From Edaphobacter aggregans (GTDB taxonomy: Bacteria; Acidobacteriota; Terriglobia; Terriglobales; Acidobacteriaceae), in contig NZ_RSDW01000001.1 in assembly GCF_003945235.1 (NCBI RefSeq), forward strand, positions 4,200,001 to 4,232,000: a stretch of DNA of 32,000 nt. The letters are read 5' to 3'. The translations under genes and the position numbers were made by a program. Under the pieces are notes generated by a model. The model did no database searches. It worked only from the letters and a program-made list of their open reading frames with translations, and had not been told where the DNA came from. Below, in pieces: positions 1 through 25,244 of this stretch. Numbering within the stretch: position 1 is the first letter of the stretch; the number at the start of each line of letters is the position of its first letter.

Positions 1-2672
1 TCCTTACCCTCGCCAAGACCGAGGGCATGCTCTTCAAGTGGGGATCGGGCGCAGGCTCGAACCTGAGCAACATCCGCGGCAGCATGGAAACGCTTAGCGG
101 CGGCGGTACCGCATCCGGCCCGCTCTCCTTCATGCGTGGCTTCGATGCCTTCGCTGGTGTCATCAAGTCAGGCGGCAAGACCCGTCGCGCCGCCAAGATG
201 GTCATCCTCAACGTCGACCATCCCGACATCATGGACTTCATCGACTGCAAGGTCAGCGAAGAGAAGAAGGCGTGGACGCTCGTGCAGGCTGGCTACGATG
301 GCAGCGGTCCAGACTCCGAGGCCTACAGCAGCATCTTCTTCCAGAACGCCAACAACTCCGTCCGCGTCACCGACGAGTTCATGGCCGCCGTCGAGTCCGA
401 CTCGACCTTCTACACCCGTACCGTCAAGCACCGCGCGCCGGTCAAGGAGTACCGCGCCCGCGACATCATGCACGCCATCGCCGAAGCCACCTGGCAGTGC
501 GGCGACCCCGGCATGCAGTACGACACCACCATCAATCGCTGGCACACGAGCAAGAACTCGGGCCGCATCAACGCCTCCAACCCATGCTCGGAGTACATGT
601 TCCTCGACGACTCCGCCTGCAACCTTGCATCCTTCAATCTCCTGAAGTTCCTCACTCCGGGAGGCCAGTTCGACGTCGCCGCGTACCGTCACGCCATCGC
701 CATCGTCACCACCGCCATGGAGATTATCGTCGACGCCGCCGGCTACCCCACCGAGATGATCGCGAAGAACTCGCACGACTATCGCCCACTCGGCCTCGGC
801 TATGCGAACCTCGGCGCGCTCCTAATGGCCTTCGGTCTGCCTTACGACTCCGACGCCGGCCGTGACTTCGCAGCTGCCGTAACTGCGATCCTCTGCGGCG
901 ACGCCTACTGGCAGTCCTCGCGCATCGCCGAGACATGCCCCGCCCTCGGAGCCGCCACTCCGCTCACCCAGCAGGCGCACATCGCTGGCGGAGCCTGCCC
1001 CGGCTTCTACGTCAACCGCGAGCCCTTCCTCGACGTCATCCGCATGCACCGCGCCGAGGTCAATAACATCGGCAAGTCCCGCCGCAGCGCCGAGCCCTTC
1101 GTCGCCCCGCAGCTCGACGAGCTCATTGAAGCCTCGCGCCAAGCCTGGGACGGCGCCCTCGCCCACGGTGAACGCCACGGCTATCGCAACTCCCAGGTCA
1201 CCGTCCTCGCGCCCACCGGCACCATCGGCTTCATGATGGACTGCGACACCACCGGCATCGAGCCCGACCTCGCCCTCGTCAAGTACAAGAAGCTCGTCGG
1301 CGGCGGCATGATCAAGATCGTCAACAACACCGTGCCCTCGGCGCTCTTCAAGCTCGGCTACACCAACGCCGAGGTCGACGCCATCGTCAGCTACATCGAC
1401 GCCACCGGCACCATCGAAGGCGCTCCCGCCATCAAGCCCGAGCACCTCGCCGTATTCGACTGCTCCTTCAAGCCCGCCAAGGGCACGCGCTCCATCCATT
1501 ACATGGGCCACATCCAGATGATGGCGGCCACCCAGCCCTTCCTCTCCGGAGCCATCTCGAAGACGGTCAACCTCCCGCAGGACGCGTCTGTGGATGACAT
1601 TGCCGAGGCCTACATCGAGTCCTGGCGTCAGGGCCTCAAGGCCGTAGCCATCTACCGCGACAACTCCAAGGGCTCGCAGCCTCTCAACGTCTCCGCCGCC
1701 GACGGCAAGGCCCAGAAAGAGAAAGCCGTAAGCTCCGTCGCAGCCGGTTCGGTCGAGATCGAAGAAGCCGTCATCGCTGCCAAGGCAGCCGTAGCCCGCG
1801 AAGCGCAGGCCCGCATCACCGCCCTCGAGACCCAGCTCAAGCAGATCGCCGAAGCCGCCCTGCAAAACAGCGACTCGGTCGACGCGCAGTCTCCACCCCG
1901 CGCCGTCCGTCATCGTCTGCCTGCCGAGCGCGCCTCCGTCACGCACAAGTTCGGCCTCTCCGGGCACGAGGGCTACATCACCGTCGGCCTCTACCCCAAC
2001 GGCCAGCCCGGCGAAATCTTCATCCGCATGGCCAAGGAAGGCTCCACCGTCTCCGGCCTCATGGACAGCTTCGCCACGGCCGTCTCGCTCGCCCTCCAGC
2101 ACGGCGTGCCGCTCAAGGTCCTCTGCGAGAAGTTCGCCCACACCCGCTTCGAGCCCTCTGGCTGGACCGGCAACGAGCAGATCGGCTACGCCAAGTCGAT
2201 CATGGACTACATCTTCCGCTGGATCCAGATCCGCTTCCTCTCCGGCCACCAGCTCGACCTCTTCGCCGGCCTCGGCCCGCAGCAGGCCTCCATCCCCGTC
2301 GAAGGCGCCGTAACCAGCCCCTCGAGCGCAGTCATCCTGAGCGGAGCGCGCAGCGCGGAGTCGAAGGACCCCGAGGGTCTTGCCAGCGGCACCAGCATCC
2401 CGAGCCTTTTAGCCTCGGACGACTACTACACCACCACCCCACCCCAGCAGGGAATCGCCCCCGACCCAACAGCTCAGGGAACGTCCACGCAGTACACACT
2501 AAGCTCGACTCCCTCCATGGAAGACCGCGGCATCTACCACGCCGCCGACGCCATGAAGTCCATGTACGACATGGGCGACGCCCCAAGCTGCGCCACCTGC
2601 GGAGCCATCATGACCCGCAGCGGCTCCTGCTATCGCTGCATGTCCTGCGGCAGCACTAGCGGCTGCAGCTAA
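1..2672 (+). CDS. nrdJ: Class II (adenosylcobalamin-dependent) ribonucleotide reductase, 5'-truncated by the window edge
   Basis: ORF 27..2672 stays open upstream to base 3 (..LTLAKTEG-MLFKWGSG), so the start lies outside the window. RNR hallmarks in the translation: NPCSEYMFLDDSACNLASFNL (active-site Cys/Asn block), LAPTGTIGFMMDCDTTGIEPD, ISKTVNLPQDASVDDI..WRQGLKAVAIYRDNSK, and the long-form NrdJ block RHRLPAERASVTHKF..GYITVGLYPNGQPGEIFIRMAKEGSTVSGLMD..RFEPSGWT. The C-terminal cysteine tail is CATCGAIMTRSGSCYRCMSCGSTSGCS. Codons almost all end in G/C. Confidence 0.9.
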   Translation, partial: LTLAKTEGMLFKWGSGAGSNLSNIRGSMETLSGGGTASGPLSFMRGFDAFAGVIKSGGKTRRAAKMVILNVDHPDIMDFIDCKVSEEKKAWTLVQAGYDGSGPDSEAYSSIFFQNANNSVRVTDEFMAAVESDSTFYTRTVKHRAPVKEYRARDIMHAIAEATWQCGDPGMQYDTTINRWHTSKNSGRINASNPCSEYMFLDDSACNLASFNLLKFLTPGGQFDVAAYRHAIAIVTTAMEIIVDAAGYPTEMIAKNSHDYRPLGLGYANLGALLMAFGLPYDSDAGRDFAAAVTAILCGDAYWQSSRIAETCPALGAATPLTQQAHIAGGACPGFYVNREPFLDVIRMHRAEVNNIGKSRRSAEPFVAPQLDELIEASRQAWDGALAHGERHGYRNSQVTVLAPTGTIGFMMDCDTTGIEPDLALVKYKKLVGGGMIKIVNNTVPSALFKLGYTNAEVDAIVSYIDATGTIEGAPAIKPEHLAVFDCSFKPAKGTRSIHYMGHIQMMAATQPFLSGAISKTVNLPQDASVDDIAEAYIESWRQGLKAVAIYRDNSKGSQPLNVSAADGKAQKEKAVSSVAAGSVEIEEAVIAAKAAVAREAQARITALETQLKQIAEAALQNSDSVDAQSPPRAVRHRLPAERASVTHKFGLSGHEGYITVGLYPNGQPGEIFIRMAKEGSTVSGLMDSFATAVSLALQHGVPLKVLCEKFAHTRFEPSGWTGNEQIGYAKSIMDYIFRWIQIRFLSGHQLDLFAGLGPQQASIPVEGAVTSPSSAVILSGARSAESKDPEGLASGTSIPSLLASDDYYTTTPPQQGIAPDPTAQGTSTQYTLSSTPSMEDRGIYHAADAMKSMYDMGDAPSCATCGAIMTRSGSCYRCMSCGSTSGCS

Positions 2673-2681
2673 TGCGCACCT

Positions 2682-2793
2682 TGTTTGATAGCCATAAGGG
2701 TGTGGGTTTACGCATAAGGTGAAAGTTGTACCCCATAAGGCGAAAGTTGAGGCCCCATAAGATGAAAGTCATTCATTTTATGGGGTTTAGATG
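2682..2793 (+). repeat. Tandem ~21-bp direct repeats (putative TnsB-binding sites) forming a Tn7-like transposon right end
   Basis: The core CATAAGGNGAAAGT recurs with 20-22 bp spacing. Copies: CATAAGGGTGTGGG at 2693, CATAAGGTGAAAGTTG at 2713, CATAAGGCGAAAGTTG at 2734, CATAAGATGAAAGTCA at 2756. One inverted partial copy, TTATGGGG, lies at 2778-2785. Two possible 5'-TGT termini: TGTTTGAT at 2682 or TGTGGGTT at 2701. The block starts 10-29 bp after the nrdJ stop and faces the tns genes on the same strand. Confidence 0.55.
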
Positions 2794-2829
2794 CAATATC
2801 TCGAACTCGATATTGTAAACCTCCATAAC

Positions 2830-3999
2830 CTACATAACTTCCACAACTGTCTTTCCTGCTGTTGCTTGCGAGCAATGAAGGTTTTCGGTATCGGCGAGCC
2901 GATCCTCCCCAACGTACATTGCAGAGAGAGTTTGAAGCCGGGTCAGCGTCTCCTTGTCCATAATTAGGCCATTCCCGGCCTGACTCAACCGCCGCGTCGG
3001 CAGACCCAACTTCCTCAGCCGATGTCCCACCTTTTCAGGGCTAAGTTTGGACGGCTCGCCCCGCGCTTCCACCAGACGGTTGATCTCGACCGCGATTTCC
3101 CGTGCGTAAAGTTGTTCGGTGCCTCCCGTGCTCAGGGCGAGTATCGCTTCGACGACCAAGGCTTCGGTTGTATTCCGCCGTTCTGAGATCTGCCGCCGAT
3201 CCCACGGGGCAAGGATTGCAACGAGTGCCGCCTGAAGGTCGGGCGAATCCACAATGCAGCTTCCGAGAGCCTTTGCGACGGCGCAGGTCTCCGGTGAGAC
3301 CCCAATGGGGTTGAACGCAAGCCGGCGTACCTGAGCCAGGTGACCTTCGCGATACTTGGCCAAGTTGCTGTTGAGATCCTCGACAGCTTGGTCAATCCCT
3401 ACGGGAGGAATTCGTTTCTCCGCATTCAGCGCGGGCGTCACGTCGATGTAGATGGCGTGCTGGATCCTTCTAATCGTGGGATCTTCACCGATGTAGACCG
3501 CCTTGGAGCTATGACACTGCAAGTAGGACCCTTGCTCCACGATCATGAATCCCCGGTTTGTCAGGTTTCCCAAGAGGGCTGCGGTCTGGTTGTTCAGATT
3601 GGGTTCAGAGATGAGGAGCGTATGGCGGGACACATCCTTGAGGTCCCCCCTGCGAAATCCAGCAAGGAGCAGTGATCCAAGGCAAAGGTCATGGAGGACG
3701 CGCAGAAGTTCGGTCGCCTCGTGGGCCGGGCCCGTGATCACCAGGCATGGAAGCACGATAAGGGCCTCCTGGAACCAAGTCGAGATCACCCAGAACGCGG
3801 CAATAGCGATGTCGGCGTTGGACAAGTGAGTCTGTGCCTTGATCGTGTGCTTGATGGTAGTGAGGAGCTCGAGGGCCTTGCTTGATGGCGGTGCCGGTGA
3901 AGACTCAGGCGTCGAAGTTGCGGCCTTATTGGTGCCGGACAAGGGCAACGTTGGGTCGGCTTCAGTCGCCGACGGGAGGTTTGCTTGTGACTCGTTCAT
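2830..3999 (-). CDS. Hypothetical protein, DUF3631-like layout with a degenerate Walker A
   Basis: 389-aa ORF with GAGAGG about 7 nt upstream of the ATG. The central block AIAAFWVISTWF..LPCLVITGPAHEATELLRVL..TLLISEPN..LLGNLTNRG parallels the DUF3631 layout (..ITSPxxGCGKT..TLLIDEAD..), but GPAHEAT replaces GxGKT. The C-terminal KLSPEKVGHRLRKLGLPTRRLSQAGNGLIMDKETLTRL resembles the DUF3631 C-terminal helix-turn-helix. The family call is from memory only. Confidence 0.5.
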   Translation of the reverse strand: MNESQANLPSATEADPTLPLSGTNKAATSTPESSPAPPSSKALELLTTIKHTIKAQTHLSNADIAIAAFWVISTWFQEALIVLPCLVITGPAHEATELLRVLHDLCLGSLLLAGFRRGDLKDVSRHTLLISEPNLNNQTAALLGNLTNRGFMIVEQGSYLQCHSSKAVYIGEDPTIRRIQHAIYIDVTPALNAEKRIPPVGIDQAVEDLNSNLAKYREGHLAQVRRLAFNPIGVSPETCAVAKALGSCIVDSPDLQAALVAILAPWDRRQISERRNTTEALVVEAILALSTGGTEQLYAREIAVEINRLVEARGEPSKLSPEKVGHRLRKLGLPTRRLSQAGNGLIMDKETLTRLQTLSAMYVGEDRLADTENLHCSQATAGKTVVEVM

Positions 4000-5464: not shown

Positions 5465-6796
5465 ATGAATATGTTGACCCACGAATTCGCAGCGCGACCC
5501 GCACTCATTCGACGTGCGATTGCCCAACACCAAGTTTGGATCGAACAGAGCCTCGGCATTCCGTTGGCCGAGGGCATCATCTTGAATTGCGATCAAACTC
5601 TTGCGAACGCAGCGATACCGCAACTGTTGGGAAATATCGATTCCTGCGGTTCCCGCGAGAAGACCACGCGTCTTTTCATGGAGGTCGTAGAGTCTGTCGA
5701 GTTCCCGCCCTCGAATGCACCCTTGCTTCAGGTTGACGCAGTGAGCAGATCGGTTGACCTTGAGACAGTGCTCGGCGGGGGAGAGTCCCGCCAATCGCAG
5801 GCTTTTGCGTGGGACGATGGCCCGGTGGCGTTTAGGGTGCGGGGGATTGGTTCGCCTTTGATCGCATTGACCCTCGCCTATCATGCGGGGCCAACCAGTA
5901 TTTGCGAAAACACCGCGCAAGTCCTTATATTCCGACGCGACGCCTCCAGGCTGGTTCTTGAGCTATTGGCAAGGCTCAGCAAGTCCGACGGTCAACCGAA
6001 GCTACACACCCTCAATGGCGGGGCACAGCACGTCCCGCCTTGCCGTTGGGATCAGCTTGTGCTCGAGCCGAATATCACGTCTCTGTTGAAGGATGACTTT
6101 GGATCCTTCTTTGAGCGCGAACTCTGGTTCCGTAAGATGCAGCTTCCGTTCCGCCGTGGTTATTTGCTCCACGGGCCGCCAGGTAACGGCAAAAGCTCTG
6201 CGATTCGTGCGATGCTGACGAGCGCAGGGCTGACAGCCTACACTCTTCGCCTCTTCGATTCGCGGACAGAAGATTCAGACATCGCCCGTGTCTTTGAGCG
6301 AGCCGTAAACCATGCCCCGGCGATGATCCTCCTTGAAGATATAGATCGTGCTTTTCCTCGCACCGGTGAGTCAAGAAGCAAAGTCAGCCTTCAGCAGCTA
6401 CTGAACTGCCTGGACGGTGTTGCTACCGGCGAAGGGATCGTCACCGTTGCCACGGCCAATGAACCGACGATTCTCGATCCCGCGATTCTGAGAAGACCAG
6501 GCCGATTTGATCGCGTCGTCCATTTCCCGAATCCGTCGTCCGCCCTGCGTCGCGAATACCTCTGTCGGATGCACGACACGTTTGCGGCAGCGAATCTCGA
6601 TTCGGTTGTCTCCGATTCCGAAGGATTCTCCTTTGCCCAGCTTCGCGAGGCTTACATTATGGCGGGGCAACTAGCTTTTGAGGGCAATCGCGAGATTGTC
6701 GTGAAGGATCTCTCTTCCGGAGTTCGTTGCCTGCGAGAGACATCTCAACTCTCTAATAGGTGGAGCAGCCGTGCCGGATTCATCGGCTCAGCCTAA
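5465..6796 (+). CDS. Classic-clade AAA+ ATPase with a unique ~210-aa N-terminal domain
   Basis: Walker A: LLHGPPGNGKSSAI. Walker B: PAMILLEDIDRAF. Sensor and second region of homology: VTVATANEPTILDPAILRRPGRFDRVVHFPNP. There is a single AAA module followed by a short helical lid (LRREYL..FSFAQLREAYIMAG). Confidence 0.85.
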   Translation: MNMLTHEFAARPALIRRAIAQHQVWIEQSLGIPLAEGIILNCDQTLANAAIPQLLGNIDSCGSREKTTRLFMEVVESVEFPPSNAPLLQVDAVSRSVDLETVLGGGESRQSQAFAWDDGPVAFRVRGIGSPLIALTLAYHAGPTSICENTAQVLIFRRDASRLVLELLARLSKSDGQPKLHTLNGGAQHVPPCRWDQLVLEPNITSLLKDDFGSFFERELWFRKMQLPFRRGYLLHGPPGNGKSSAIRAMLTSAGLTAYTLRLFDSRTEDSDIARVFERAVNHAPAMILLEDIDRAFPRTGESRSKVSLQQLLNCLDGVATGEGIVTVATANEPTILDPAILRRPGRFDRVVHFPNPSSALRREYLCRMHDTFAAANLDSVVSDSEGFSFAQLREAYIMAGQLAFEGNREIVVKDLSSGVRCLRETSQLSNRWSSRAGFIGSA

Positions 6797-6913: not shown

Positions 6914-7663
6914 ATGAAGAGACTTGAGTTGCCAAACACGAGAACCGTATCCATCGAGCAATTTCGAGGCCCCACCTTTGAGACGTCAGCTAATCTCTCA
7001 AGGATCAAAGGCATCCACTTTCCCGAACCTAGCCAGATGCGTTCGCGCAGGGTTGTTTCGCGATCGAATGCGCGTTCAACGGGGAAATACCCCAGCTGGA
7101 AGATGGGACGGATGATGCACTGGGAGTCCATCCATGAGCTCAACGCTTTCCGTCTGCTCGACTGCGACCCGAACGTCACGAGCTACTGTGAGCAGCCCTG
7201 CCAGATCGTGTACGTCCTGGACGGAGTGGAGAGGCTTCATTATCCCGACATTATTGTTACAACGACCGCAGGAAAACAGCTCTGGGAAGTCAAGCTCCGA
7301 TCCAACGCTTCGGAACCCGAGGTTCTCGCCAGGACTGCTTTTCTTTCGCGTGCCCTTCCGAGATGGGGCTACGAGTATCAAACCGTATTTGATGAAGACC
7401 TCGCCAAACAGCCACGTCTCAGCAATGCGAACCTCCTCCTCAGATTAGGTAAACGAGCGGTCAATGATTGCGAATGGGAAGGTGTCCGACGCACCCTTGC
7501 AGAGCAAGGGGAATTGCTTTGGTCGGAGGCCACCTCCGACAACTATGGCGCAAAGGGCAGAGAGATCCTTTTGAGCCTCGTACTCAGGGGCATACTTACC
7601 ATCGACATGGACTCTCCGATCTCATCCGCTACCGAATTTGTCCCCAAGAATGGGAGTTTTTGA
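6914..7663 (+). CDS. tnsA: TnsA-like transposition endonuclease
   Basis: The motif order matches the TnsA restriction-endonuclease fold: WESIHELNAFRLLDCDPNVTSYCEQP (E) .. HYPDIIV (D) .. LWEVKLRS (K). The stop at 7661-7663 sits 1 nt before the tnsB ATG. The exact start is uncertain because internal Met codons exist. Confidence 0.8.
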   Translation: MKRLELPNTRTVSIEQFRGPTFETSANLSRIKGIHFPEPSQMRSRRVVSRSNARSTGKYPSWKMGRMMHWESIHELNAFRLLDCDPNVTSYCEQPCQIVYVLDGVERLHYPDIIVTTTAGKQLWEVKLRSNASEPEVLARTAFLSRALPRWGYEYQTVFDEDLAKQPRLSNANLLLRLGKRAVNDCEWEGVRRTLAEQGELLWSEATSDNYGAKGREILLSLVLRGILTIDMDSPISSATEFVPKNGSF

Positions 7664-7664
7664 T

Positions 7665-9674
7665 ATGGCAACCGCCTGTTTAGAGCAGGGTACGGTCGTT
7701 CATATCGAAGGGAGCGAATACCGCTTCTCGCGAAAGATCGACGACTGCTGGCAATTAGAGCAGTCAAAGACCGGGCGAATCGTTGAGTATGAGCAGCAGG
7801 ATCTGTTGCGCATGCTTGCGGAGCGAAAGTTGACCTTCCGTGGGAGTGTGCCAGTAAGCAGATGCGGACCCGCCAACTGCGACTTGTCTCCGGCAGATCT
7901 CGAATTGGCGAAGCTGCGGCGCAGTTACGTCATGGCCGTCCTTAACACGCCAAATTCCCGGAAGCGACTTGAGGAGGCTATTCACGATGCCTGGAAGAGG
8001 GTCAGAGCACCACAACGAGCTCCCGGTTGGATCACCGTTTACCGCTGGAAATGCAGATTCCTCAGAGCGAGTGGCGACGTTCGCGCTCTGGTTGACGACA
8101 CTCGTAGCAAAGGCAACAAGCAAGGCCGTTACCCAGCATCGGTTATAGAGCGCTGCGAGCAGTCCATATCGAACAAGTATCTTAACAGAACACGCAACAG
8201 CATCCAGCAGACACTTGAAGACGCACTATACCGGGTGAAGAAGGAGAATGAGCTGCGTCCTGCCTGCGATGCGTTGCCGGTGCCAACGCGGCGCCTGATC
8301 ACCCGGATGATTGCGAATATTCCCGCGTTTGACAAGCATTCTGCACGCTACGGACATGATTCCGCAGTCAAAGAATTCCGCGGTGTCAAGGGTCAAACCG
8401 TTGCCCAAGCGCCCCTTGAGCGGGCGGAAATAGATCACACACTGCTCGACCTCATGGTGGTAGACGACCGGACTGGTCTACCGCTGGGAAGGCCATCTGT
8501 CACGGCCTGCATCGACTGCTACACGAGGTGCATCCTGGGTATATACATCGGGTTTAATCCGCCGAGCTATCAATCCGTCGCAGCGTGTCTGAAAGACTGC
8601 TTTCTGCCGAAGGTCAATCTCAAGCGAGACTACCCCGGCATCGTGAACGAATGGCCGGCTTACGGAGTAATGCACAACCTCGTCGTGGACGGCGGTCTTG
8701 AGTTCTACTCCGCGAGTCTCGAACAAGTGTGCCTCTCACTGAACATAAACTGGATCGCTGCTCCCCGTCGCACCGCGTGGTTCAAGGGGAAGATCGAACG
8801 CTTTCTAGGAACGATGAATCGGGCCGTTGCCCATGGAGTTCCGGGTACCACGTTCAGTAACATCTTTGAGAAGGGTGACTACAATCCGGCGAAGCATGCG
8901 GTGATAACCCTCTCGACATTGCGAAAAGTTGTCCGAACGTGGATTGCCGACGTCTACCATCAGCAGGTCCACCGGTCTCTTCAGACGACGCCATCAAAGA
9001 TGTGGACATCGAGCATTAGACCGGAAGACATCCGTCTTCCAGACGAGACGACACAGCTGGATGTCGTTATGGGCCGTGTAGAGTCACGGTCCCTGACACA
9101 CAAGGGGGTCGAGTTTGAAGGCCTGTTCTACAACTCACCTGAACTAACAGAACTGCGCCGTAAAGAGGGAGCAAATCTCAAAGTTGAGATCCGCGTCAAT
9201 GAAAGTGACATCGGCTCGATCTATGTGCTGTCACCAAAGACCTCTAAAGCCTACTCCGTCCCAGCGTCGGACCCTGACTATGCGGGAGGAATCAGCCTAT
9301 GGCAGCACAAAGTCATTAAGAACTACCAAAGACAGCACTCCGATACGGATCATGGCGTAGACGGCTGGCTGCAGGCAAAGAATGAGGTCTCACATCTGAT
9401 CGACGAGAGTCTCAAACTCAAACGCGCCAGGACGCACAAACGTATTGCTCGCTACCGTGAGACCCCCGAGCAGAAGCCGCCGAAAACTCAGATGATTGAA
9501 GCTACCAAACTTCGAACACCTGCTCCGATCAGCGCGACTACAGGAAGTCAGATGGTGGATCGCGGGTTTAGGGATAGCGTTCAGGATCAGGCTGGTATAC
9601 CGCAGCAGGAATCGGCAGTACCCATCATTCGCCCACGATTCAAGGCGGAAATTAGGGAGATCCATGAAGACTAA
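7665..9674 (+). CDS. tnsB: TnsB-like DDE transposase (Mu/Tn7 rve family)
   Basis: DDE triad context: AEIDHTLLDLMVVDD .. HNLVVDGGLEFYS .. WFKGKIERFLGTMN. The ATG at 7665 (MATACLEQG..) directly follows the tnsA stop. The track start at 7638 overlaps tnsA and is less likely. Confidence 0.9.
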   Translation: MATACLEQGTVVHIEGSEYRFSRKIDDCWQLEQSKTGRIVEYEQQDLLRMLAERKLTFRGSVPVSRCGPANCDLSPADLELAKLRRSYVMAVLNTPNSRKRLEEAIHDAWKRVRAPQRAPGWITVYRWKCRFLRASGDVRALVDDTRSKGNKQGRYPASVIERCEQSISNKYLNRTRNSIQQTLEDALYRVKKENELRPACDALPVPTRRLITRMIANIPAFDKHSARYGHDSAVKEFRGVKGQTVAQAPLERAEIDHTLLDLMVVDDRTGLPLGRPSVTACIDCYTRCILGIYIGFNPPSYQSVAACLKDCFLPKVNLKRDYPGIVNEWPAYGVMHNLVVDGGLEFYSASLEQVCLSLNINWIAAPRRTAWFKGKIERFLGTMNRAVAHGVPGTTFSNIFEKGDYNPAKHAVITLSTLRKVVRTWIADVYHQQVHRSLQTTPSKMWTSSIRPEDIRLPDETTQLDVVMGRVESRSLTHKGVEFEGLFYNSPELTELRRKEGANLKVEIRVNESDIGSIYVLSPKTSKAYSVPASDPDYAGGISLWQHKVIKNYQRQHSDTDHGVDGWLQAKNEVSHLIDESLKLKRARTHKRIARYRETPEQKPPKTQMIEATKLRTPAPISATTGSQMVDRGFRDSVQDQAGIPQQESAVPIIRPRFKAEIREIHED

Positions 9675-10683
9675 TAACTCTGCCAGCATCGTCGAACGGA
9701 TGGTGATTCCGCATACTGCCTTTGCTGAAGCCCGTCAGAGAATCGAACAGTGCTTTGCATTTTCTGCGGCGAAGGCCGAGGGCGAGGGTCTGCTTATCGT
9801 TGGCGAATCTGGTACGGGCAAGACCAGCGTACTGAAGAGCTTCCAATTGAATCACATGCCGACGCGTGGTTGCGACGGGATGGAGATCCCGATCCTCTAC
9901 GCCTCAGTTCCTCCGATGCCAACGGTCAAGAGTCTTGCCGGCGTTATGTTAGCTGCTCTCAATGCCCCTGATTCCGAGCGAGGCACCGAGAACGAGAAGT
10001 CGCGGCGCTTGAGGATCCTGATGAAGGAGACGGGAACACGCATGGTGATGATCGATGAATTTCAACATTTCTACGATCGAGGGAAGCGGCAGATCATGCT
10101 TCACGTCGCTGATTGGCTCAAAGTCCTGATCGACGAGACGCGTTCGACGCTTGTCGTAGCAGGGCTCCCGTCCTGCCGAGTAGTCATCAATGAGAACGAG
10201 CAACTTGCCAGGCGCTTTATGGCCTCGATTCAACTTCCAAGGTTTTCGTGGACCGATTCCAGACAGCGCGGAGAGTTCATATCGATCCTTGAGGAGTACC
10301 ACAATCAAATCGCTAAGGACTTCAGTTTGCCCAAACTTTACTCGGAAGAGCTGGCCTTTCGCTTCTTCCTGGCCACTGGAGGGCTGATGGGATACTTGTC
10401 CAAACTACTGCGGACAACTCTGCGCGATGCGGCTGATCGAAAGAGGGCTTCCATTACCCTCGAAGACTTGAATATTGCCCATGCACGCGCAATGTGGTTC
10501 GACGCGACCGTTCAGGAACAGCTCAGACCATTTGAAAAGGGCTTCCGGCCGGAAGTTACCGTAGACGCGCTGAATCGCGCCACAAGGATCGGAACGGTCG
10601 CCGATCTTCCAGAGAAACCGACGCGGCCGCGAAGTGGAATGCGAAAAGCTGAATCGATCAACGCAGCGCTGGTGGCTGCGTGA
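9664..10683 (+). CDS. tnsC: TnsC/TniB-like AAA+ transposition regulator
   Basis: Walker A: LLIVGESGTGKTSVLKSF. Walker B: RMVMIDEFQHFYD. The ATG at 9664 (MKTNNSASIVE..) overlaps the tnsB stop by 11 nt. The track ORF start at 9496 lies inside tnsB. Confidence 0.85.
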   Translation: MKTNNSASIVERMVIPHTAFAEARQRIEQCFAFSAAKAEGEGLLIVGESGTGKTSVLKSFQLNHMPTRGCDGMEIPILYASVPPMPTVKSLAGVMLAALNAPDSERGTENEKSRRLRILMKETGTRMVMIDEFQHFYDRGKRQIMLHVADWLKVLIDETRSTLVVAGLPSCRVVINENEQLARRFMASIQLPRFSWTDSRQRGEFISILEEYHNQIAKDFSLPKLYSEELAFRFFLATGGLMGYLSKLLRTTLRDAADRKRASITLEDLNIAHARAMWFDATVQEQLRPFEKGFRPEVTVDALNRATRIGTVADLPEKPTRPRSGMRKAESINAALVAA

Positions 10684-11564
10684 GTATGCCGCTCCTTGTT
10701 CGCCATCCTGCTCCAAATCCTACGGAAAGCCTTCTGGGATATGTGCTCCGTGTCAGTGAGGGCAACGGCTACAGTTCGCCATGGAGCATCTACTGTCTGG
10801 CAGGCATGAAGTCAAACGAGAGAAGAGCATCGAGAGTTGAATTAGAGAAGCTGGCCAGGATAACCAATTGGCCTCAAGAGAGGCTGGACGCGATTGCGTA
10901 TTCAGCACCCCCTGATCAGCCGCGGTGGTCTCGACTGTTGGGGCATCCTGTTCCGCCCCAGGACCTCAATCTGACCCACCCGAGATTCTGCCCTCAATGT
11001 GTCCGAGGGAGGGGTTTCCTTGAGGCGCACTGGGATCTTACGCTTATGGTCGCCTGTCCTGTCCACCGATGCTTGCTGGCCTCGTCTTGCTCAAAATGCG
11101 GTTGTCGCCTGCGCTGGTTCAGACGAGGCTTGCTCGAATGCGAGTGTGGCGGCGACCTGTCAAATTCCGATCCGTCTTCGATCTCGGAGGCTGAAGCGAA
11201 TCTGCTCGACATAATTCGAAGGAAGGCGTTGTCCTGCCCATCAGATGAGAGTAATCCGAGCGGTCTGCCGCAGGAACAAATGATCGCTATGAGCCTGCGG
11301 TCCATGCTCCTGGCCATCCGAACGATAGGGAAGCATCGCATCATAGCCGATGGAACGAGTGGCAAGAGTAAAGAGAAGGAGATCATCTCGGCTGCTTCAA
11401 GAGTTCTTGTGCAGTGGCCAACGAATTTCATTGCGTTGATGGAAGACCTCGGTCGACAACTTCCATCCGACATCAGTGGTGGCGTCGGTAAACAGTTTGG
11501 TGGCATCTATCGAGCCTTGTTCCGAAGCAAGGCAATGGGAATCCAAAGCATACTGAGTTCCTGA
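10680..11564 (+). CDS. tniQ: TniQ-domain target-selection protein, N-terminal part of an apparently frameshifted TnsD-like gene
   Basis: The N-terminus is typical of TniQ (LLVRHPAPNPTESLLGYVLRVSEGNGY). It has a Cys-rich zinc module: CPQCVRGRGFLEAHWDLTLMVACPVHRC..CSKCGCRLRW..CECG. The GTG start overlaps the tnsC stop (GTGA). The ORF ends abruptly at 11564, while the next ORF's frame is already open from 11492. Confidence 0.8.
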   Translation: MSMPLLVRHPAPNPTESLLGYVLRVSEGNGYSSPWSIYCLAGMKSNERRASRVELEKLARITNWPQERLDAIAYSAPPDQPRWSRLLGHPVPPQDLNLTHPRFCPQCVRGRGFLEAHWDLTLMVACPVHRCLLASSCSKCGCRLRWFRRGLLECECGGDLSNSDPSSISEAEANLLDIIRRKALSCPSDESNPSGLPQEQMIAMSLRSMLLAIRTIGKHRIIADGTSGKSKEKEIISAASRVLVQWPTNFIALMEDLGRQLPSDISGGVGKQFGGIYRALFRSKAMGIQSILSS

Positions 11565-11587
11565 GAGTTGCTTTTCTGGACTTTGCG

Positions 11588-12529
11588 ATGAATCACTGGG
11601 GTCGTGGTTTTGTGGATCACAAAATCATCCAGAAACTGGGCGGCACTGCCTCGAAACGATTTCTAACCCAGACAGAGTTTGCCGCCAGGATCGGTGTGCA
11701 GCAAAGCACCGCTGCTCGACTGCTCAGAAACTCAGGTCTTGCTTCGACGCGAGTGAAGTGTGGAGCAGCCAGCCGGGTTGTCGTAGACTGCGATCTGGTT
11801 TCGATCCCGAAAACTTGGCCAGGGAAGATATACAGAGATAGGGGGGCCGCGAAGCATCTTGGACTCTCCGTGTCTGTCCTGAAGGCTCTCAAAAAAGGGG
11901 GCATTTACGAAGTGAATCATCTTCTGCCGACGCGAACGGGCTTCCATGAACTGGACTTCAAAGCATTCACCAAAAAGCTGGTCGATTTGTCGCCAGATCG
12001 CAAGACCTCCTCTATTCGAGAACAGGAAACTGTAACCCTCCAGTCCGTTCTATGTGGGCGTCGGGATTCGTTGGAGATCAAACTGAACATCGTGCGAGCG
12101 TTGCTCTCGAGGAACATTCCCGTCCGCGGAAGTTCGGATGGAACGGTCGGCGGTCTGCTGATCGACGCCGATGCATATCATAAGGTTGTCGCGGATGTTC
12201 GTTCCAGTGGCACCGCCAATACAAAGAATGTCGGTGAGGCCGCGAGGATGTTGTCATGCAGTCGGGATGCAATCCCTGGGCTGGTAAAACTCAGCGCTTT
12301 ACAAGCGCGAGTAACGCCCGCCGGTCTGCGAATATCTGACGAGTCGATTGCGGCGTTCAGCGGCCAGTACATCTCGCTCTCCTCGCTTGCAGCTGTTGAG
12401 CAGACCAGCAGCAGAGCATTGACGCATCGCTGCCAGGACCGAGGCCTCCGGATTTTGCTGGTGCCGATGCCCAGACAGGGGCCACAGCCCTTCATTCATA
12501 AAATGAATCACGGGAAACTCCTGGAGTAA
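11588..12529 (+). CDS. TnsD-like C-terminal region (multiple helix-turn-helix-like segments), probably the 3' part of the split target-selector gene
   Basis: HTH-like segments: LTQTEFAARIGVQQSTAARLL, RGAAKHLGLSVSVLKALKKGG, VGEAARMLSCSRDAIPGLV. The frame is open upstream to 11492 and there reads ..NPKHTEFLRVAFLDFAMNHWGRGF. Confidence 0.6.
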   Translation: MNHWGRGFVDHKIIQKLGGTASKRFLTQTEFAARIGVQQSTAARLLRNSGLASTRVKCGAASRVVVDCDLVSIPKTWPGKIYRDRGAAKHLGLSVSVLKALKKGGIYEVNHLLPTRTGFHELDFKAFTKKLVDLSPDRKTSSIREQETVTLQSVLCGRRDSLEIKLNIVRALLSRNIPVRGSSDGTVGGLLIDADAYHKVVADVRSSGTANTKNVGEAARMLSCSRDAIPGLVKLSALQARVTPAGLRISDESIAAFSGQYISLSSLAAVEQTSSRALTHRCQDRGLRILLVPMPRQGPQPFIHKMNHGKLLE

Positions 12530-12975: not shown

Positions 12976-14176
12976 CTGTTCTCCTTTTCAAATTATGCAC
13001 TCCGCCCAAAGACTATTCGCCGATGAATAATTACGCCTTTTGATCGTGCGCGCCTGGAGAGGATCGACGGCCAACGGCACGGGATGATTCATGAAAATGG
13101 ATTTGCGACAGCGTTGCCGACGATCACCGAAGACTTGGAATACATGTCGAAGACCGCATGGTTCTTTATGGGCTTGGTAAACCAAAAATTTGGCCTAAGA
13201 CTCGATACGCGGCGGCTTATGGGTTTGCAGACAGCTAAGCCTCAAGAAGTGCCAACCGCGTTATCCTCCGATTTATCCCCAGGCACGACTCGACATCGTC
13301 TGTAGGTGTACTGGGGATTCCGTCAGAAAACCGACAATCGTCTAGAAGATTTCTCTTGCATATTCAACGTTTTCTGATAGCCTTGTCGAACTCTGCCGGT
13401 CGGTACACTGCACCACGCAACCTATTCTAGGCTCCGCAGAAGCCGATCCGATTTTGAACCTTGCTGAGAAATTCATAATTGGAGTGTGCATCCGTGTCCC
13501 GCCGCAATAGCCAAGCGTCGTCGAATTCATTAGAGCATCCGCGTATGCCAGTCGCCATAGGACGAGCGCTCCCACATGTGATCCGGGTTTGTCGTAGAGG
13601 CCGCAGACCAAGGCCAACTGTCCCAAACATCCTAAGACGGCGAGAGCATAACGCTAATTCTCGGTGCAAAACAATCGGATGATCAGGTAGTCGGCCACGC
13701 AGGAACGTATGAGGCACTTAAGGCCCAACAACGAGCTTTTTATACCCAAGCGAACGAGCCGTGCATGCTGATTTCATGATGCCTTCGTCGGCCAGGAAAA
13801 GAAATGCAGAGATCTTGCCAAAGTGCCTGGTCGTGAATTTGCTCACCGGTCTTCGTTTCCAACATGTCGCGCAGACTGGAGGATCGGCTGCCGTCAAAAC
13901 CGCCCGAATATGGTTGCACCGGTTCAGACTACTTGAAGGGATCGACGACAATAGCTTTATTGAGGCCTGGCTCTACGACAGCTTCGGCAATCCGACCCTC
14001 CACCAACTCCGATCCAAGAAATTGACGCCGGAAGGAGTTTTGACGAGGCGCCGGCTCGGATGTCAGATCGGACGGATTCAGTTTCACTGCCACACCCGGG
14101 CTCAATGTGCAGTTGTTCGCTGTTTTCGGGGTCTGGTCCGGAGGGATCCACCGGCGGCCCGCGTAGGAGGACATCG

Positions 14177-15547
14177 ATGCCGCACGAAGTGTGTCTTGTC
14201 GAACCAGCTGGCGTGACCCCGCAGTTAAGCTTGAGCCGAATGCTCAGGCCAGAGGATGGCTATCGTTGCAAGTGCGAATGCTGGACTTCTTTTTCCGCTG
14301 GACCAAACTTTCTCGGCGCTCAATTGCTGCTGGCCGTCGCAGTCCCGGAATGCTGGGCCGCGATCAGCTTTTTCCGCACTCAATCTTGCAATCAGGGTCG
14401 AACGCCGACCCTGGCCGTCGTCCCTAGCGAATCCAGCGAAGAACTGCTGCGTAGCGCTTCGGATGCGTCAGATGACTTTATGTTCTGGCCCATTCGCGAA
14501 CAGGAACTGCTGGAACGGGTGAAGCGCTTAATCGGCGCAGCCACGCGCGACAAAGACACGGTGCAGGGGGTGCTCACCGAAGAATTGGGACTTGAACAAG
14601 TGATCGGCTCGTCTCCGGCTTTTATTGAACTCCTCGCACAACTCACTCGGATGGGACCAAGCGAAGCCCCAGTGCTGATCACCGGAGAGACGGGCACGGG
14701 CAAGGAAGTATGCGCCCGTTCCATCCATCTGTTGAGCCGGCGGCGGCAACAACCTTTCATTCCGGTCGATTGCGGAGCGATACCTGAACATCTGGCAGAG
14801 AGCGAGCTTTTTGGCCATGCACGCGGCGCTTTTACTGATGCCCACCGCGACCATAAGGGGCTAGTCTCTCTGGCCGATGGAGGCACTCTTTTTTTGGACG
14901 AGATCGATGCACTTTCCTTGAACATGCAGGCCAAGTTCTTGCGTTTTATTCAGGAGAGCACTTATAGGCCGGTTGGCGGCGAGCAGTTTTGCCGAGCCAA
15001 TGTTCGGGTCATCGCGGCCACTAACCGTAGGCTTGAGCAGTCTGTTCTGGACAGGCAATTTCGAAACGATCTCTATTTTCGCCTGAATGTTTTGCGCTTA
15101 TCCGTTCCCCCTTTGCGAGAAAGGCGTGGAGATATAGCGCTGCTTGCAAGATATTTTCTTGAGAAGCTCGGGGGCTCAGGGGTGCCGGCACGCAAATGGT
15201 TATCGCCAGTAGCTTTAAGGAAGTTGGAGGACTACGACTGGCCCGGCAACGTTCGCGAAGTAAGTAACGTAATGCAGCGCGCCATCGTGCTCTCGCCTGG
15301 ATCTCAGATTCTTCCCTGTCACATCCTTCTTTCCACCGGCGATCCTCGCGGTATCGAGTGTACCCCGTCCCCGTCTAACTTCCGCTGCGCCAAGTCGAAG
15401 GCAATCGAAGCTTTCGAGCGGCAGTACGTCCTCGACCTTCTGCAGAAGCACGACGGCAACATCACTCGGGCAGCCCGAGATGCAGACAAGGATCGCCGCG
15501 CCTTCGGCCGATTAGCCCAGAAATATAAGTGGGACACCAGCCTCTAG
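14177..15547 (+). CDS. Sigma-54-dependent transcriptional activator (bEBP) with a degenerate receiver-like N-domain and Fis-type HTH
   Basis: AAA+ sigma-54 interaction domain: VLITGETGTGKEVCARSIH (Walker A), ESELFGHARGAFTDA (GAFTGA-type loop), GGTLFLDEIDAL (Walker B), RVIAATNRRL, DLYFRLNV, PPLRERRGDI, YDWPGNVREV. C-terminal HTH: HDGNITRAARDADKDRRAFGRLAQKYKW. The preferred start is the ATG at 14177, preceded by AGGAGGACATCG. The track start at 14060 adds a low-complexity leader. Confidence 0.9.
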   Translation: MPHEVCLVEPAGVTPQLSLSRMLRPEDGYRCKCECWTSFSAGPNFLGAQLLLAVAVPECWAAISFFRTQSCNQGRTPTLAVVPSESSEELLRSASDASDDFMFWPIREQELLERVKRLIGAATRDKDTVQGVLTEELGLEQVIGSSPAFIELLAQLTRMGPSEAPVLITGETGTGKEVCARSIHLLSRRRQQPFIPVDCGAIPEHLAESELFGHARGAFTDAHRDHKGLVSLADGGTLFLDEIDALSLNMQAKFLRFIQESTYRPVGGEQFCRANVRVIAATNRRLEQSVLDRQFRNDLYFRLNVLRLSVPPLRERRGDIALLARYFLEKLGGSGVPARKWLSPVALRKLEDYDWPGNVREVSNVMQRAIVLSPGSQILPCHILLSTGDPRGIECTPSPSNFRCAKSKAIEAFERQYVLDLLQKHDGNITRAARDADKDRRAFGRLAQKYKWDTSL

Positions 15548-15830
15548 CCAGGCAGGTTGCTGAAACTCCATTTTCAAAAGTCCAAATAATTTGTGCGGAA
15601 GGCGATTGCCTGGATATTCCACAGGCTTTGAGCAAGTGGGTCGATTTCATCCCATCTCTGGGTCGAATCGAGCCCACCCTCGCTTCCCCGTGTACAGATC
15701 GGGTTCGGACTGCCTTGGATGTGCGGGAAGAAAAGAGACCAGGGCTCTTTCTTACCCGGCTGCTGTTCGTACGTCGACGTGTTCCGGTGACTCTGCCTTA
15801 TTTTTCAGAGGTGCGAGACCAGTAGCGGTG

Positions 15831-15846
15831 TGGAGAAGCAATTGCT
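15831..15846 (+). promoter_or_regulatory. Candidate sigma-54 (-24/-12) promoter for the eCIS operon
   Basis: TGGAGAAGCAATTGCT has GG and GC in exactly the canonical TGGCAC-N5-TTGC register, with a good -12 TTGCT. It lies about 35 nt upstream of the SD (AAGGAGAGAG) and TTG start of the first operon gene, and about 280 bp downstream of the bEBP gene. Confidence 0.5.
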
Positions 15847-15881
15847 AGGCAGGGGGTACCGCGTGTGATTAAGGAGAGAGC

Positions 15882-16184
15882 TTGCCACGCAAGACTTCGA
15901 CTCCGACATCAGAGTTGGCAAGGGAGATATTGAGCTACTTCCTTCGAAACCCACAAGCTGCGGACAGCCTGGAGGGTGTGACGCGGTGGCGCTTACTGGA
16001 AGAGAGAGTGCACCGCCAGCTGGAGGACACTGACTTAGCTTTGGGGTGGTTGGTTAGCCATGGCTTCCTGGTGAAGATTTCTTCGCAGTGGACCGAAGCT
16101 GTTTATCGATTGAACGAGGGGAACCGCGGCGATGCAGAGGAATTCATAATCGAAAACGAGAAAGGTAAGCGCAAATCGCGCTGA
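15882..16184 (+). CDS. Small hypothetical protein (100 aa), winged-helix-like, first gene of the eCIS operon
   Basis: TTG start with a strong SD (AAGGAGAGAG). The pattern REILSYFLRNPQAADSLEGVTRW..LALGWLVSHGFLVKISSQWTEAVYRLNE resembles a winged helix-turn-helix. The tail is basic and acidic. Function unknown. Confidence 0.6.
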   Translation: MPRKTSTPTSELAREILSYFLRNPQAADSLEGVTRWRLLEERVHRQLEDTDLALGWLVSHGFLVKISSQWTEAVYRLNEGNRGDAEEFIIENEKGKRKSR

Positions 16185-16198
16185 AGCTGAATTGATTT

Positions 16199-16792
16199 AT
16201 GTCAACCTATGCAGCGATTGCCGGTACCTGCGAAGCGGTAGTCAGGCTGCTCCGTTGCAATTATGACCCAACGAAGTTCAATGGAGCTATGTTGGATTTT
16301 CAGGTTTACGTGGCTAATGACTTCACCACCCCCATGGAAGAGGGCGTGTCAGTGTTTTTGTATCGGATCTACCAGAACGGCACGCACCGAACACCAACAG
16401 GCCGCCTGCTGCCCGATGGCACCAGGCAAGCGACTATGTTGCCCCTCGACCTTCATTTTCTCCTAACCGCGTGGGCTAAGAAGGCCTCGCTGCAAAATGA
16501 AATCGCCGGTTGGATGATGCGTGTAATGGAAGACAATGCAATCCTTCCTGCCAGCATGTTGAATGCTTACCAGCCGAACGTCTTCCGGCCGGATGAGGCA
16601 GTGGATCTGACTTTCACCGAACTTAGCGTGGAAGATATGTTCCGAGTGTGGGAAACCATGATCGGTCACGTTTATCAACTTTCCGTGCCGTACCAGGCGC
16701 GCATGCTCGAGATTGAGTCGTTGGTGTCGATACCGCCCGAAGGCAGGCCGGTACAAGGGCGCACGTCCGATATACGCCTGATCAGCACATAG
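16199..16792 (+). CDS. DUF4255 (Pvc16/Afp16 N-terminal-like) tail terminator/cap protein
   Basis: Family-typical blocks: VSVFLYRIYQNGTHR, LPLDLHFLLTAWA, MRVMEDNAILPASML, FTELSVEDMFRVWETM, QLSVPYQARMLEIES. Confidence 0.8.
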   Translation: MSTYAAIAGTCEAVVRLLRCNYDPTKFNGAMLDFQVYVANDFTTPMEEGVSVFLYRIYQNGTHRTPTGRLLPDGTRQATMLPLDLHFLLTAWAKKASLQNEIAGWMMRVMEDNAILPASMLNAYQPNVFRPDEAVDLTFTELSVEDMFRVWETMIGHVYQLSVPYQARMLEIESLVSIPPEGRPVQGRTSDIRLIST

Positions 16793-16840
16793 CCATCGGT
16801 TCGCAGTGACGTTACGGTTCGAGTCGTTAAGGAACTACTT

Positions 16841-17767
16841 ATGGCATCCACAGGTCCGGGAATCCCGCTGGAGCAAGTCTTTGTATTTACGGTGCTCGGC
16901 ATCCAGTTTTGGGATCAGACATTGGACCAACCGATTACCGATGGTCTCACGGTGACGGCCCAACTGCGGGGCACGGACTATCCGCTGGTGACCGCTTTTC
17001 GCACCGCCTCAGGCGCGTATGCGTTTCAGGGACTCCCATGCCTGCATGACGTCGAATACCCTGTGGGCGGGAGCCAGGTCTCAACCAGCCCGCAAAAGAC
17101 TTTTTCATTTGTAATTACAGTTGCGGATTCTCTCGAGCGATTTCTGCCCACACTTTTTGCGCTGGATCTTCCCTTGGACTATCCGGGCCTCTTCTTGAGC
17201 AATGAAATAGGAAGTCCCGTGGGAATGGGAGCTCGAGCTTATCTGTTTTCGGCGCCAACCCGCGCAGCCGCTGTAGGAATTAGCGTGATTCGGGTCAACC
17301 TTTGGGACCACGACAGGAACCAGGCCGCCGCGTATGCCGCGCTTCAAGTGTCCGTCGGCGGCCAGCAGTGGACAGGTATTGCAGATGGCCAGGGCAGGTC
17401 GCAAGTCCAGTTCCCATCACCCTTGCTGCAGAGTCTCAGTCTCGGCTCTCCGCCTGGCAGCGGACAAGGTCCGACGTCATCCGTAAGCTGGCCTATTCAA
17501 ATAAGAGTGCTATATGAGCCGGCGCAGCTGCGCTTCCTGTTACAAGGTGTGCCGGATGTTGTCTGGCCGAGGAAGAGCACGCCCAGCTTAAAGAGCATTC
17601 TGGACGAGCAGCAGCCGGCTCTGGTCTGGCAGCAGGCAGTTGGACCTCCGGTGCCGGAGTGGACCGGAACACTCAGTTACGGCACGCCGCTTGTTGTGCG
17701 CACTATCTTAAGCGACCCCACGCAGATTTCTTCGGTTCTGATGATTTCACAAAGCACTTCGCCCTAA
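16841..17767 (+). CDS. Hypothetical eCIS-associated protein (308 aa) with two beta-sandwich-like repeats
   Basis: SD AAGGAA is present, and the gene is co-directional within the operon. The two segments GIQFWDQTLDQPITDGLTVTAQLRG..AFRTASGAYAFQGLP and VIRVNLWDHDRNQAAAYAALQVSVGGQQWTGIADGQGRSQVQFP resemble carboxypeptidase-regulatory or transthyretin-like folds. This is inference only. Confidence 0.65.
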   Translation: MASTGPGIPLEQVFVFTVLGIQFWDQTLDQPITDGLTVTAQLRGTDYPLVTAFRTASGAYAFQGLPCLHDVEYPVGGSQVSTSPQKTFSFVITVADSLERFLPTLFALDLPLDYPGLFLSNEIGSPVGMGARAYLFSAPTRAAAVGISVIRVNLWDHDRNQAAAYAALQVSVGGQQWTGIADGQGRSQVQFPSPLLQSLSLGSPPGSGQGPTSSVSWPIQIRVLYEPAQLRFLLQGVPDVVWPRKSTPSLKSILDEQQPALVWQQAVGPPVPEWTGTLSYGTPLVVRTILSDPTQISSVLMISQSTSP

Positions 17768-17782
17768 CAAAGGAGGCATGCC

Positions 17783-19843: not shown

Positions 19844-19880
19844 ACCATGACTCCAGGGGGAGTCGGAAAGGAAACTTGCT

Positions 19881-20342
19881 ATGGCGGTGCAGCGTGCTCG
19901 TCCTTATAGCCAATTTAATTTCATGGTCCAGATCGGGAATGACAACGGTCAGGGTGTGAATGCTGGGTTTCAGGAAGTGTCCGGTCTGGGAGTCGAGATT
20001 CACGTCGCTGAGTATCGCGCAGGAAACTGGTCGGATAATTCGCCGATCAAGGTGAATGGTTCCTATAAGGTTCCGGATGTCACCCTGAAACGTGGCCTGA
20101 TCGCCGAGTTGACTCTTTTGCATGCCTGGCTCAAGGCCGTCCGCGACGGCGGCAATGATGCCAGCGTTCTGCTGCCGGTGGTTATCAATCTCATGAGCGA
20201 AGACCGAACGACGGCTGTTCAAACCTGGACGTTAACCAATGCGCGTCCCATGAAGTACACGGGCCCCTCACTCACCGGCAAGGGTACCGATGTCGCGATC
20301 GAAGAACTGGTCCTTGCCTCCGAGCACATTGAGATTTCCTGA
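19881..20342 (+). CDS. Contractile tail tube protein (T4 gp19-like / Afp1 class)
   Basis: PYSQFNFMVQI..AGFQEVSGLGVEIHVAEYRAGN..PIKVNGSYKVPDVTLKRGLI..WTLTNARPMKYTGPSLTGKGTDVAIEELVLASEHIEI. This is the typical conserved phage-tail-region tube signature. Confidence 0.9.
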   Translation: MAVQRARPYSQFNFMVQIGNDNGQGVNAGFQEVSGLGVEIHVAEYRAGNWSDNSPIKVNGSYKVPDVTLKRGLIAELTLLHAWLKAVRDGGNDASVLLPVVINLMSEDRTTAVQTWTLTNARPMKYTGPSLTGKGTDVAIEELVLASEHIEIS

Positions 20343-20345
20343 AGA

Positions 20346-23567: not shown

Positions 23568-23569
23568 TC

Positions 23570-24046: not shown

Positions 24047-24100
24047 GTCCGTCGGGCTCGGGCTCTTGAAGATTGAATCTGCCACAACTGAGGAGCATAG

Positions 24101-25003: not shown

Positions 25004-25048
25004 TAGCGAAGACATTATCGCTCTTGAAAGAACTGCGGAGGACGAGAG

Positions 25049-25219: not shown

Positions 25220-25244
25220 GTTTTTTGACTAAGGAAGCAGAACC

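Follow-up and report, generated by a model that had tools for sequence, protein, structure and literature searches.

A Tn7-like right end beside the stop codon of nrdJ in Edaphobacter aggregans and the probable attachment site of a transposon family

What is the block of short head-to-tail repeats that begins directly after the stop codon of nrdJ, the gene of the class II ribonucleotide reductase, in Edaphobacter aggregans? The question is raised by a stretch of 32,000 nt from the genome of this member of the Acidobacteriaceae (RefSeq assembly GCF_003945235.1, contig NZ_RSDW01000001.1, positions 4,200,001 to 4,232,000 of the forward strand), which is called here the window and is numbered from its first letter. 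A sequence-only reading of the window had proposed a Tn7-style right end abutting nrdJ, and we followed up this proposal by comparing the locus with related elements and with nrdJ loci of other genomes and metagenomes, designated below by L numbers. Our answer, to which we attach a probability of about 90%, is that 2701-2775 is the right end of a cut-and-paste transposon of the Tn7 family, which occupies a chromosomal attachment site downstream of nrdJ. The evidence carrying this answer consists of the gene set, the structure of the ends, their fixed position and orientation beside an invariant coding sequence, the existence of empty sites and the target-site duplication observed in relatives. 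The whole transposon family appears to insert about 28 bases downstream of nrdJ.

The window opens inside nrdJ, whose product ends with ...SCYRCMSCGSTSGCS and whose stop codon TAA occupies 2670-2672. The features on both sides of this stop codon are the following.

1..2672, plus strand: 3' part (2.67 kb) of nrdJ, the class II ribonucleotide reductase gene, whose start lies upstream of the window; Pfam Ribonuc_red_lgC, 2.6e-127, and TSCPD
2628..2675, plus strand: predicted recognition sequence of a TnsD-like selector, the last ~14 nrdJ codons and the stop; from tail conservation and Tn7 geometry
2673..2700, no strand: 28-nt host spacer separating the nrdJ stop from the element and ending in AAGGG (2696-2700), the predicted target-site duplication
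2701..2708, plus strand: right-end terminus TGTGGGTT; first 8 nt identical or nearly so in all related right and left ends
2711..2731, plus strand: putative TnsB-binding repeat 1, CGCATAAGGTGAAAGTTGTAC; column-by-column conservation in 17 right ends
2732..2753, plus strand: putative TnsB-binding repeat 2, CCCATAAGGCGAAAGTTGAGGC; conserved among 17 aligned right ends
2754..2775, plus strand: putative TnsB-binding repeat 3, CCCATAAGATGAAAGTCATTCA; conserved among 17 aligned right ends and part of a hairpin at 2753-2785
2817..2838, no strand: conserved motif AACCTCCATAACCTACATAAC, ~115-135 nt inside the right end

The repeats share the core CATAAGGNGAAAGT, present in three head-to-tail copies at 2713, 2734 and 2756 with spacings of 21 and 22 bp, and a search of the window for this core with up to two mismatches returned 4 matches against 0.48 expected, a number reached in 0 of 100 shuffles. 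Where the element begins is decided by its relatives. All related elements have TGTGGGTT and then nnCGCATAAG at their start, and four of them (L003, L004, L005 and L006) present the same succession of nrdJ, a short unrelated spacer, TGTGGGTTnnCG(C/T)(A/G)TAA and three repeats. The sequence-only reading had left two possible 5'-TGT termini, at 2682 and 2701; both exist in the sequence, but because all related elements begin in the way just described the terminus is placed at 2701, and the candidate TGTTTGAT at 2682, which is found in none of the relatives, was rejected. With the terminus so fixed, CATAAGG at 2693-2699 belongs to the host flank, and of the two duplications proposed, AAGGG and CACCT, the first is the one now predicted. 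That reading had also counted four repeats of about 21 bp; three of them stand as full copies of 21-22 bp, while the one at 2693 was discarded, since it matches 8 of 13 specified bases (only CATAAGG), overlaps with the actual terminus and falls largely outside the element. An inverted partial copy of the repeat at 2763-2786 pairs with repeat 3 into a hairpin at 2753-2785, with a 14-bp stem and a folding energy of -23.7 kcal/mol (z = -6.25). This hairpin is common to L071, L014 and L023 only and so characterizes a sub-group, not all relatives. One may speculate that it might serve nrdJ as a stand-in terminator; no terminator-like site was called in 2400-3200.

Is nrdJ the landmark, or does the end merely happen to lie beside it? 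An end-pattern scan of one genome per species gave 61 loci, about half of them from Acidobacteriaceae (E. aggregans is not among the 61), and a scan of metagenomes with the C-terminal 400 aa of NrdJ gave 80 loci; the same end-pattern scan applied to viral contigs produced no match. Pooled and de-duplicated, the two scans provide 92-93 distinct nrdJ 3' ends. A TGTGGG-type end is present at 26 of them, from Acidobacteriaceae genomes and soil metagenomes, at a distance from the stop codon of 23 nt (2 loci), 27 (4), 28 (10), 29 (5), 30 (3), 31 (1) or 32 nt (1), so that 22 of the 26 occupied loci fall between 27 and 30 nt and 28 nt is the commonest value. In every occupied locus it is the end with three contiguous repeats, the right-type end, that faces nrdJ. 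From one locus to another, the sequences that separate the stop from the terminus show no relationship (information content ~0), whereas the nrdJ tail is nearly invariant, near SCYRCMSCGSTSGCS followed by the stop in all 92-93 loci, and conservation drops to ~0 right after the stop codon. Right ends follow an nrdJ stop in Edaphobacter modestus DSM 18101 and in Tunturiibacter gelidiferens, and elements in different hosts, with TnsB proteins 74% (L005), 77% (L003) and 92% (L004) identical to that of the window, sit at 28, 29 and 28 nt, respectively; L006, whose TnsB is also 74% identical, has the same end layout. The proposal that nrdJ is here the equivalent of glmS is supported by this fixed distance and orientation in 26 loci whose spacers are unrelated. 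Within the unselected metagenome set, the strict end pattern occurs at 8 of 74 distinct loci, and several more carry variants or remnants.

The remaining nrdJ loci (67 of the 92-93) are empty and typically show a terminator hairpin after the stop. The clearest case is L073, which encodes a 1090-aa NrdJ with 95.1% nucleotide identity to window positions 1-2671: homology ceases at the stop codon, the next 8 kb past its nrdJ contain nothing found anywhere in the window, and the window differs from it by at least 29.3 kb. The empty site that the sequence-only reading had suggested looking for among related nrdJ-downstream regions thus exists. The same reading had held that repeats standing after nrdJ in relatives devoid of tns genes would speak against a transposon end; relatives without downstream tns genes, L073 again being the clearest, do not have the block.

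The other extremity of the element and the duplication are seen in relatives. L066 holds a complete mini-element of 2.2 kb, inserted 28 nt after nrdJ and flanked on both sides by a perfect 5-bp duplication, GGACT; it is composed of a four-repeat right end, a truncated methylase gene and a left end, and the host terminator lies just beyond. Eleven left ends of relatives share, in inverted orientation, their terminal ~20-27 nt, up to 27 of 27 nt being common to the right end of the window. Their layout is that of one terminal repeat, a gap of ~35 bp containing TTCAATGACTTAC and three more repeats, that is, four spread-out sites. In tandem elements the left end of one copy is separated from the right end of the next by 5 nt in L039, L040 and L012 and by 6 nt in L062, and the 5-nt junctions imply that new insertions took place more than once at one position. 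On one contig of a metagenome-assembled genome (MAG), the flank of a right end at nrdJ matches that of a left end situated 34 kb away. For the copy in the window, the AAGGG duplication is a prediction only, because its left end lies outside the window: an inverted copy of TGTGGGTTTACGCATAAGG is expected downstream, reading ...CCTTATGCGTAAACCCACA at the left end and followed by AAGGG or by the one-base-shifted TAAGG. A single ACCCACA at 15955 was considered as this left end and rejected as a chance occurrence, since it lacks neighbouring repeats and its flank does not match. At the nrdJ site, tandem arrays and scraps of ends are frequent (L007-L010, L039, L040, L062, L022).

Which genes does this right end accompany? 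Between 2830 and 12529 the window contains the following.

2830..3999, minus strand: open reading frame (ORF) of 389 aa, convergent with nrdJ; homologues of 34-81% identity adjoin at least 17 related right ends
5465..6796, plus strand: classical AAA+ ATPase of 443 aa, just upstream of tnsA; Pfam AAA, 6.6e-21
6914..7663, plus strand: tnsA; Pfam PF08722 Tn7_TnsA-like_N, 27.7 bits for a cutoff of 26.5
7665..9674, plus strand: tnsB, DDE transposase; Pfam PF09299 Mu-transpos_C
9496..10683 (ORF), plus strand: tnsC, AAA+ regulator; Pfam PF05621 TniB, 3e-30, and VchTnsC, 8.6e-28
10680..12529, plus strand: TniQ/TnsD-like target selector, in two ORFs at 10680-11564 and 11588-12529; TniQ, 1e-18

The hallmarks of the Tn7 family, a TnsA-type endonuclease, TnsB and TnsC/TniB, are all encoded, and tnsA, tnsB, tnsC and tniQ/tnsD follow one another in the same direction over 6914-12529, tnsA being 4.2 kb from the right end. 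The tnsA gene is 62-82% identical to those of related elements, and its product gave no match by sequence to solved structures. The assignment of TnsB to 7665-9674, already made in the sequence-only reading, was confirmed by Pfam and by solved TnsB proteins, with ~1e-72 for the TnsB of type I-F3 CRISPR-associated transposons (CASTs) and 5e-15 for that of Tn7; the protein is 100% identical to one from E. aggregans. Judging from the 339-aa homologue in L004, tnsC likely starts near 9664. The selector is split into ORFs of 294 and 313 aa, 83% and 92% identical to residues 1-287 and 304-615 of the L004 protein, which is intact with 616 aa, as are the selectors of L003 and L005; the break, which alignment to L004 places in a run of G near 11537 (11530-11545), consists of a single deleted nucleotide. 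An N-terminal TniQ core is followed by a C-terminal half with weak helix-turn-helix matches. The same end is accompanied by tnsABC and a TniQ/TnsD-like gene in the window, L003, L004 and L005, an association that speaks for the proposal of a Tn7-style right end after the nrdJ stop. Homologues of the 389-aa ORF are always convergent with nrdJ and directly inside the right end. The ORF has the appearance of a core gene specific to this transposon family. It had no match in Pfam, PADLOC, NCBIfam or a PDB profile search with a 10-sequence alignment, and its single-sequence AlphaFold model, with a mean predicted local distance difference test score of 34, is unusable. The motif AACCTCCATAACCTACATAAC recurs at the equivalent position in L004, L071, L054, L032, L050, L065, L005 and L026, and in several relatives it lies past the stop of the homologue of the 389-aa ORF. 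Small ORFs separate this ORF from the AAA+ ATPase gene. The ATPase has weak matches to IetA/IteA (anti-phage ATPase) and its gene also adjoins tnsA on the upstream side in L002, L004 and L007-L011, though in neither L003 nor L005, a distribution suggesting that it may be a cargo or accessory gene of a sub-clade.

Taken together with what is established for Tn7, these observations lead to the following scheme. The TniQ/TnsD-like protein would bind the last ~14 codons of nrdJ, as their near invariance and the geometry of Tn7 suggest, and through TnsC it would guide insertion by TnsA and TnsB to a point ~28 bp beyond the stop codon; the right end would invariably face nrdJ, and 5 bp would be duplicated. 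In this way nrdJ would be left intact and the element would land between the gene and its terminator. TnsB would be expected to occupy the three contiguous repeats of 21-22 bp behind TGTGGGTT. In Tn7, the footprint of TnsD extends from +23 to +58 from the insertion point. The duplicated 5 bp are centred ~26 nt after the stop and, therefore, a footprint of this extent would cover exactly the nrdJ tail.

Several observations weigh against this reading. The 28-nt spacer of the window is not homologous to the DNA that follows the stop in L073, an empty site 95% identical in nrdJ, and this counts against it because a simple single insertion does not predict non-homology. No left end was detected in the window up to 32000 by position weight matrix, by regular expression or by blastn-short with the 11 related left ends; two flank pairs match over 6 nt, not 5; and the related right end of L071 is found upstream of lexA, not at nrdJ. 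The 4.2 kb that separate tnsA from the end exceed the distance known for Tn7. That the selector binds the nrdJ tail and TnsB the repeats is something we infer from the geometry and from Tn7. Finally, the selector gene is frameshifted, which makes this copy possibly a fossil, or immobilised, unless the G run conceals an assembly error; barring such an error, it has probably lost the ability to target nrdJ unaided.

The spacer is also the starting point for a different explanation, in which the element is real but owes its position to a spread mainly through homologous recombination in the conserved nrdJ 3' end, the flank of the donor being transferred with it, or in which the selector recognises something else. 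It would account for the unrelated spacers of the window and L073, for the rise of nrdJ divergence from L073 over the last 45 nt (6 mismatches) and for the second copy of the nrdJ tail in the spacers of L109, L111, L113 and L114. It fits poorly with a distance that stays constant among 26 loci with unrelated spacers, with the perfect 5-bp duplication of L066, with the fresh insertions at one position implied by the 5-nt tandem junctions and with the fact that the nrdJ tail is the only conserved sequence near the site, and we leave it a small chance. Beside these spacers stands a broader observation: those of L037, L051, L042, L022, L025, L109, L111, L113 and L114 contain fragments of an element terminus or a second nrdJ-tail copy, which suggests repeated use and repair of the nrdJ site.

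A slightly smaller chance still goes to the idea that the end at 2701 derives from another, decayed member of a tandem array and not from the element whose tnsABCD genes lie at 6.9-12.5 kb. The abundance of arrays and end scraps at the nrdJ site and the long gap of 4.2 kb between the end and tnsA are in its favour, yet no further end motif was found between 2800 and 6900, L004, with its 92% identical TnsB, presents the same end, 389-aa ORF, AAA ATPase and tns order, and L003 and L005 likewise have 5-5.5 kb from the end to tnsA. Hardly credible, in our view, is that the repeats are a host feature of nrdJ (a terminator, an operator or a regulatory array) with tns genes 4 kb away by coincidence. 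Such a feature might well lie in intergenic DNA directly after nrdJ and form in part a strong hairpin, as the block does. A host feature would not be expected to be missing from the 95%-identical L073 nrdJ and from most other nrdJ loci, nor to reappear inverted at left ends and at places other than nrdJ, and the negative terminator call in 2400-3200 points the same way. We therefore retain the transposon right end in an nrdJ attachment site as the explanation of the block.

Other ends and other targets were met during the comparison of loci. Ends belonging to a different sequence family occur ~28-33 nt after the nrdJ stop in L093, L105, L119 and L121, either as TGTGCGCG... with AAAATGCAAGT repeats or as TGTCGGAG... 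with GAAACT repeats, and a second lineage with different ends may share the nrdJ site. Homologues of the tns genes of the window were found in none of the retrieved metagenome nrdJ loci. In L071 (6480-6700), a right end nearly identical to that of the window lies ~95 nt upstream of lexA, and the same MAG also carries a right end at nrdJ (L014); in another MAG, a right and a left end (L028 and L017) share a 6-nt flank at a place other than nrdJ. The lexA-side end and the L028/L017 flank are hints of a second target pathway. Finally, a betaproteobacterial MAG of Zoogloea (L012, 3276-3332) presents, where a left end and a right end meet in tandem, the same TGTGGGTTGACGCAT termini, together with TnsC and selector homologues of 30-45% identity, and the end family therefore reaches beyond Acidobacteriota.

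What the element carries beyond its tns genes is less clear-cut. The rest of the window is occupied by a gene-poor interval of ~1.5 kb (12530-14053) between the tns genes and a sigma-54 activator, and then by one large feature.

14053..32000, plus strand: sigma-54 activator (14060-15547) and operon of an extracellular contractile injection system (eCIS; 16199 onward, past the window edge); Pfam Sigma54_activat, Pvc16_N, sheath, tube and baseplate

Related eCIS operons, with 88% nucleotide identity, are not preceded by tns genes, and the sequence they share with the window starts no earlier than 14053. Cargo status is therefore neither proven nor excluded, and the eCIS operon may possibly be cargo of the Tn7-like element.

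How does this element compare with known systems? The resemblance to Tn7 is extensive. TnsA, TnsB, TnsC and a selector of the TniQ family (frameshifted in the copy of the window) are found in both, in the same gene order relative to the target gene; the ends of both begin 5'-TGTGGG (the Tn7 terminus being TGTGGGCG), with packed repeats at the right end and, as seen in relatives of the present element, spaced ones at the left; and both have the right end toward the target, at a fixed short distance past the stop of an intact, conserved and essential gene. The 5-bp duplication of Tn7 has its counterpart in the relative L066. They differ in that Tn7 targets glmS and the present element nrdJ, ~28 nt from the stop, in that the right end of Tn7 has four repeats and that of the nrdJ element three, and in that nrdJ elements, unlike Tn7, have 4-5.5 kb of variable genes and the conserved 389-aa ORF between the right end and tnsA. 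A homologue of TnsE was not seen. The TnsB and TnsC proteins are much closer to the branch of Tn6677 and the type I-F3 CASTs than to Tn7: this branch supplies the closest solved relatives of TnsB (~1e-72) and TnsC (~1e-27), and its TniQ core is related. Unlike type I-F3 CASTs, the nrdJ element shows neither cas genes nor a CRISPR array among the annotated ORFs of the window, and its TniQ protein is of ~600 aa with a C-terminal half bearing a helix-turn-helix, that is, the architecture of protein-guided TnsD-type selectors (PMC10293859). The mechanism is probably the classical TnsD pathway of Tn7, and the landmark gene nrdJ appears to be the new part.

Ribonucleotide reductase genes as such are not new landmarks. 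According to a 2025 preprint, nrdB is a Tn7-like attachment site in Acinetobacter baumannii (bioRxiv 10.1101/2025.07.27.667033, citing PMC11014353), nrdD is another in Agathobacter, Fusibacillus and archaea, with insertion outside the coding sequence, and genes of this function were targeted independently several times (bioRxiv 10.1101/2025.07.27.667033). The landmark is a ribonucleotide reductase gene in all these elements; in the present case it is nrdJ, of the B12-dependent class II, in hosts of the Acidobacteriaceae. A Tn7-like site at nrdJ was not found in the literature searched, which comprised main texts without supplementary tables and few subscription journals. The large surveys consulted present no nrdJ site in their main text, and one of them lists four Acidobacteria host species without giving a site. 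The statement of the sequence-only reading that nrdJ was not among the described Tn7-family sites agrees with this literature, which gives nrdB and nrdD and not nrdJ, and the nrdJ attachment site is likely, although not certainly, undescribed.

In its widest form, the finding would mean that the nrdJ 3' end is a heavily used, undescribed site of a Tn7-like lineage extending over Acidobacteriota, and perhaps of a second lineage, that the 389-aa ORF is a new factor of transposition or target choice, and that the cargo amounts to at least 29 kb and includes a complete eCIS; as a whole, we hold this to be rather unlikely. With nrdJ added to nrdB and nrdD, all three classes of ribonucleotide reductase would serve as landmarks, a repeated convergence on one essential function. 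About one in ten to one in five of the unselected nrdJ genes from soil metagenomes carry such an end, which would make the site a frequent hot spot of integration, useful for finding cargo such as defence genes and injection systems in a phylum difficult to investigate. An intact relative like the L004 element, combined with the short invariant tail of nrdJ, may also offer a tool for site-specific integration in Acidobacteria.

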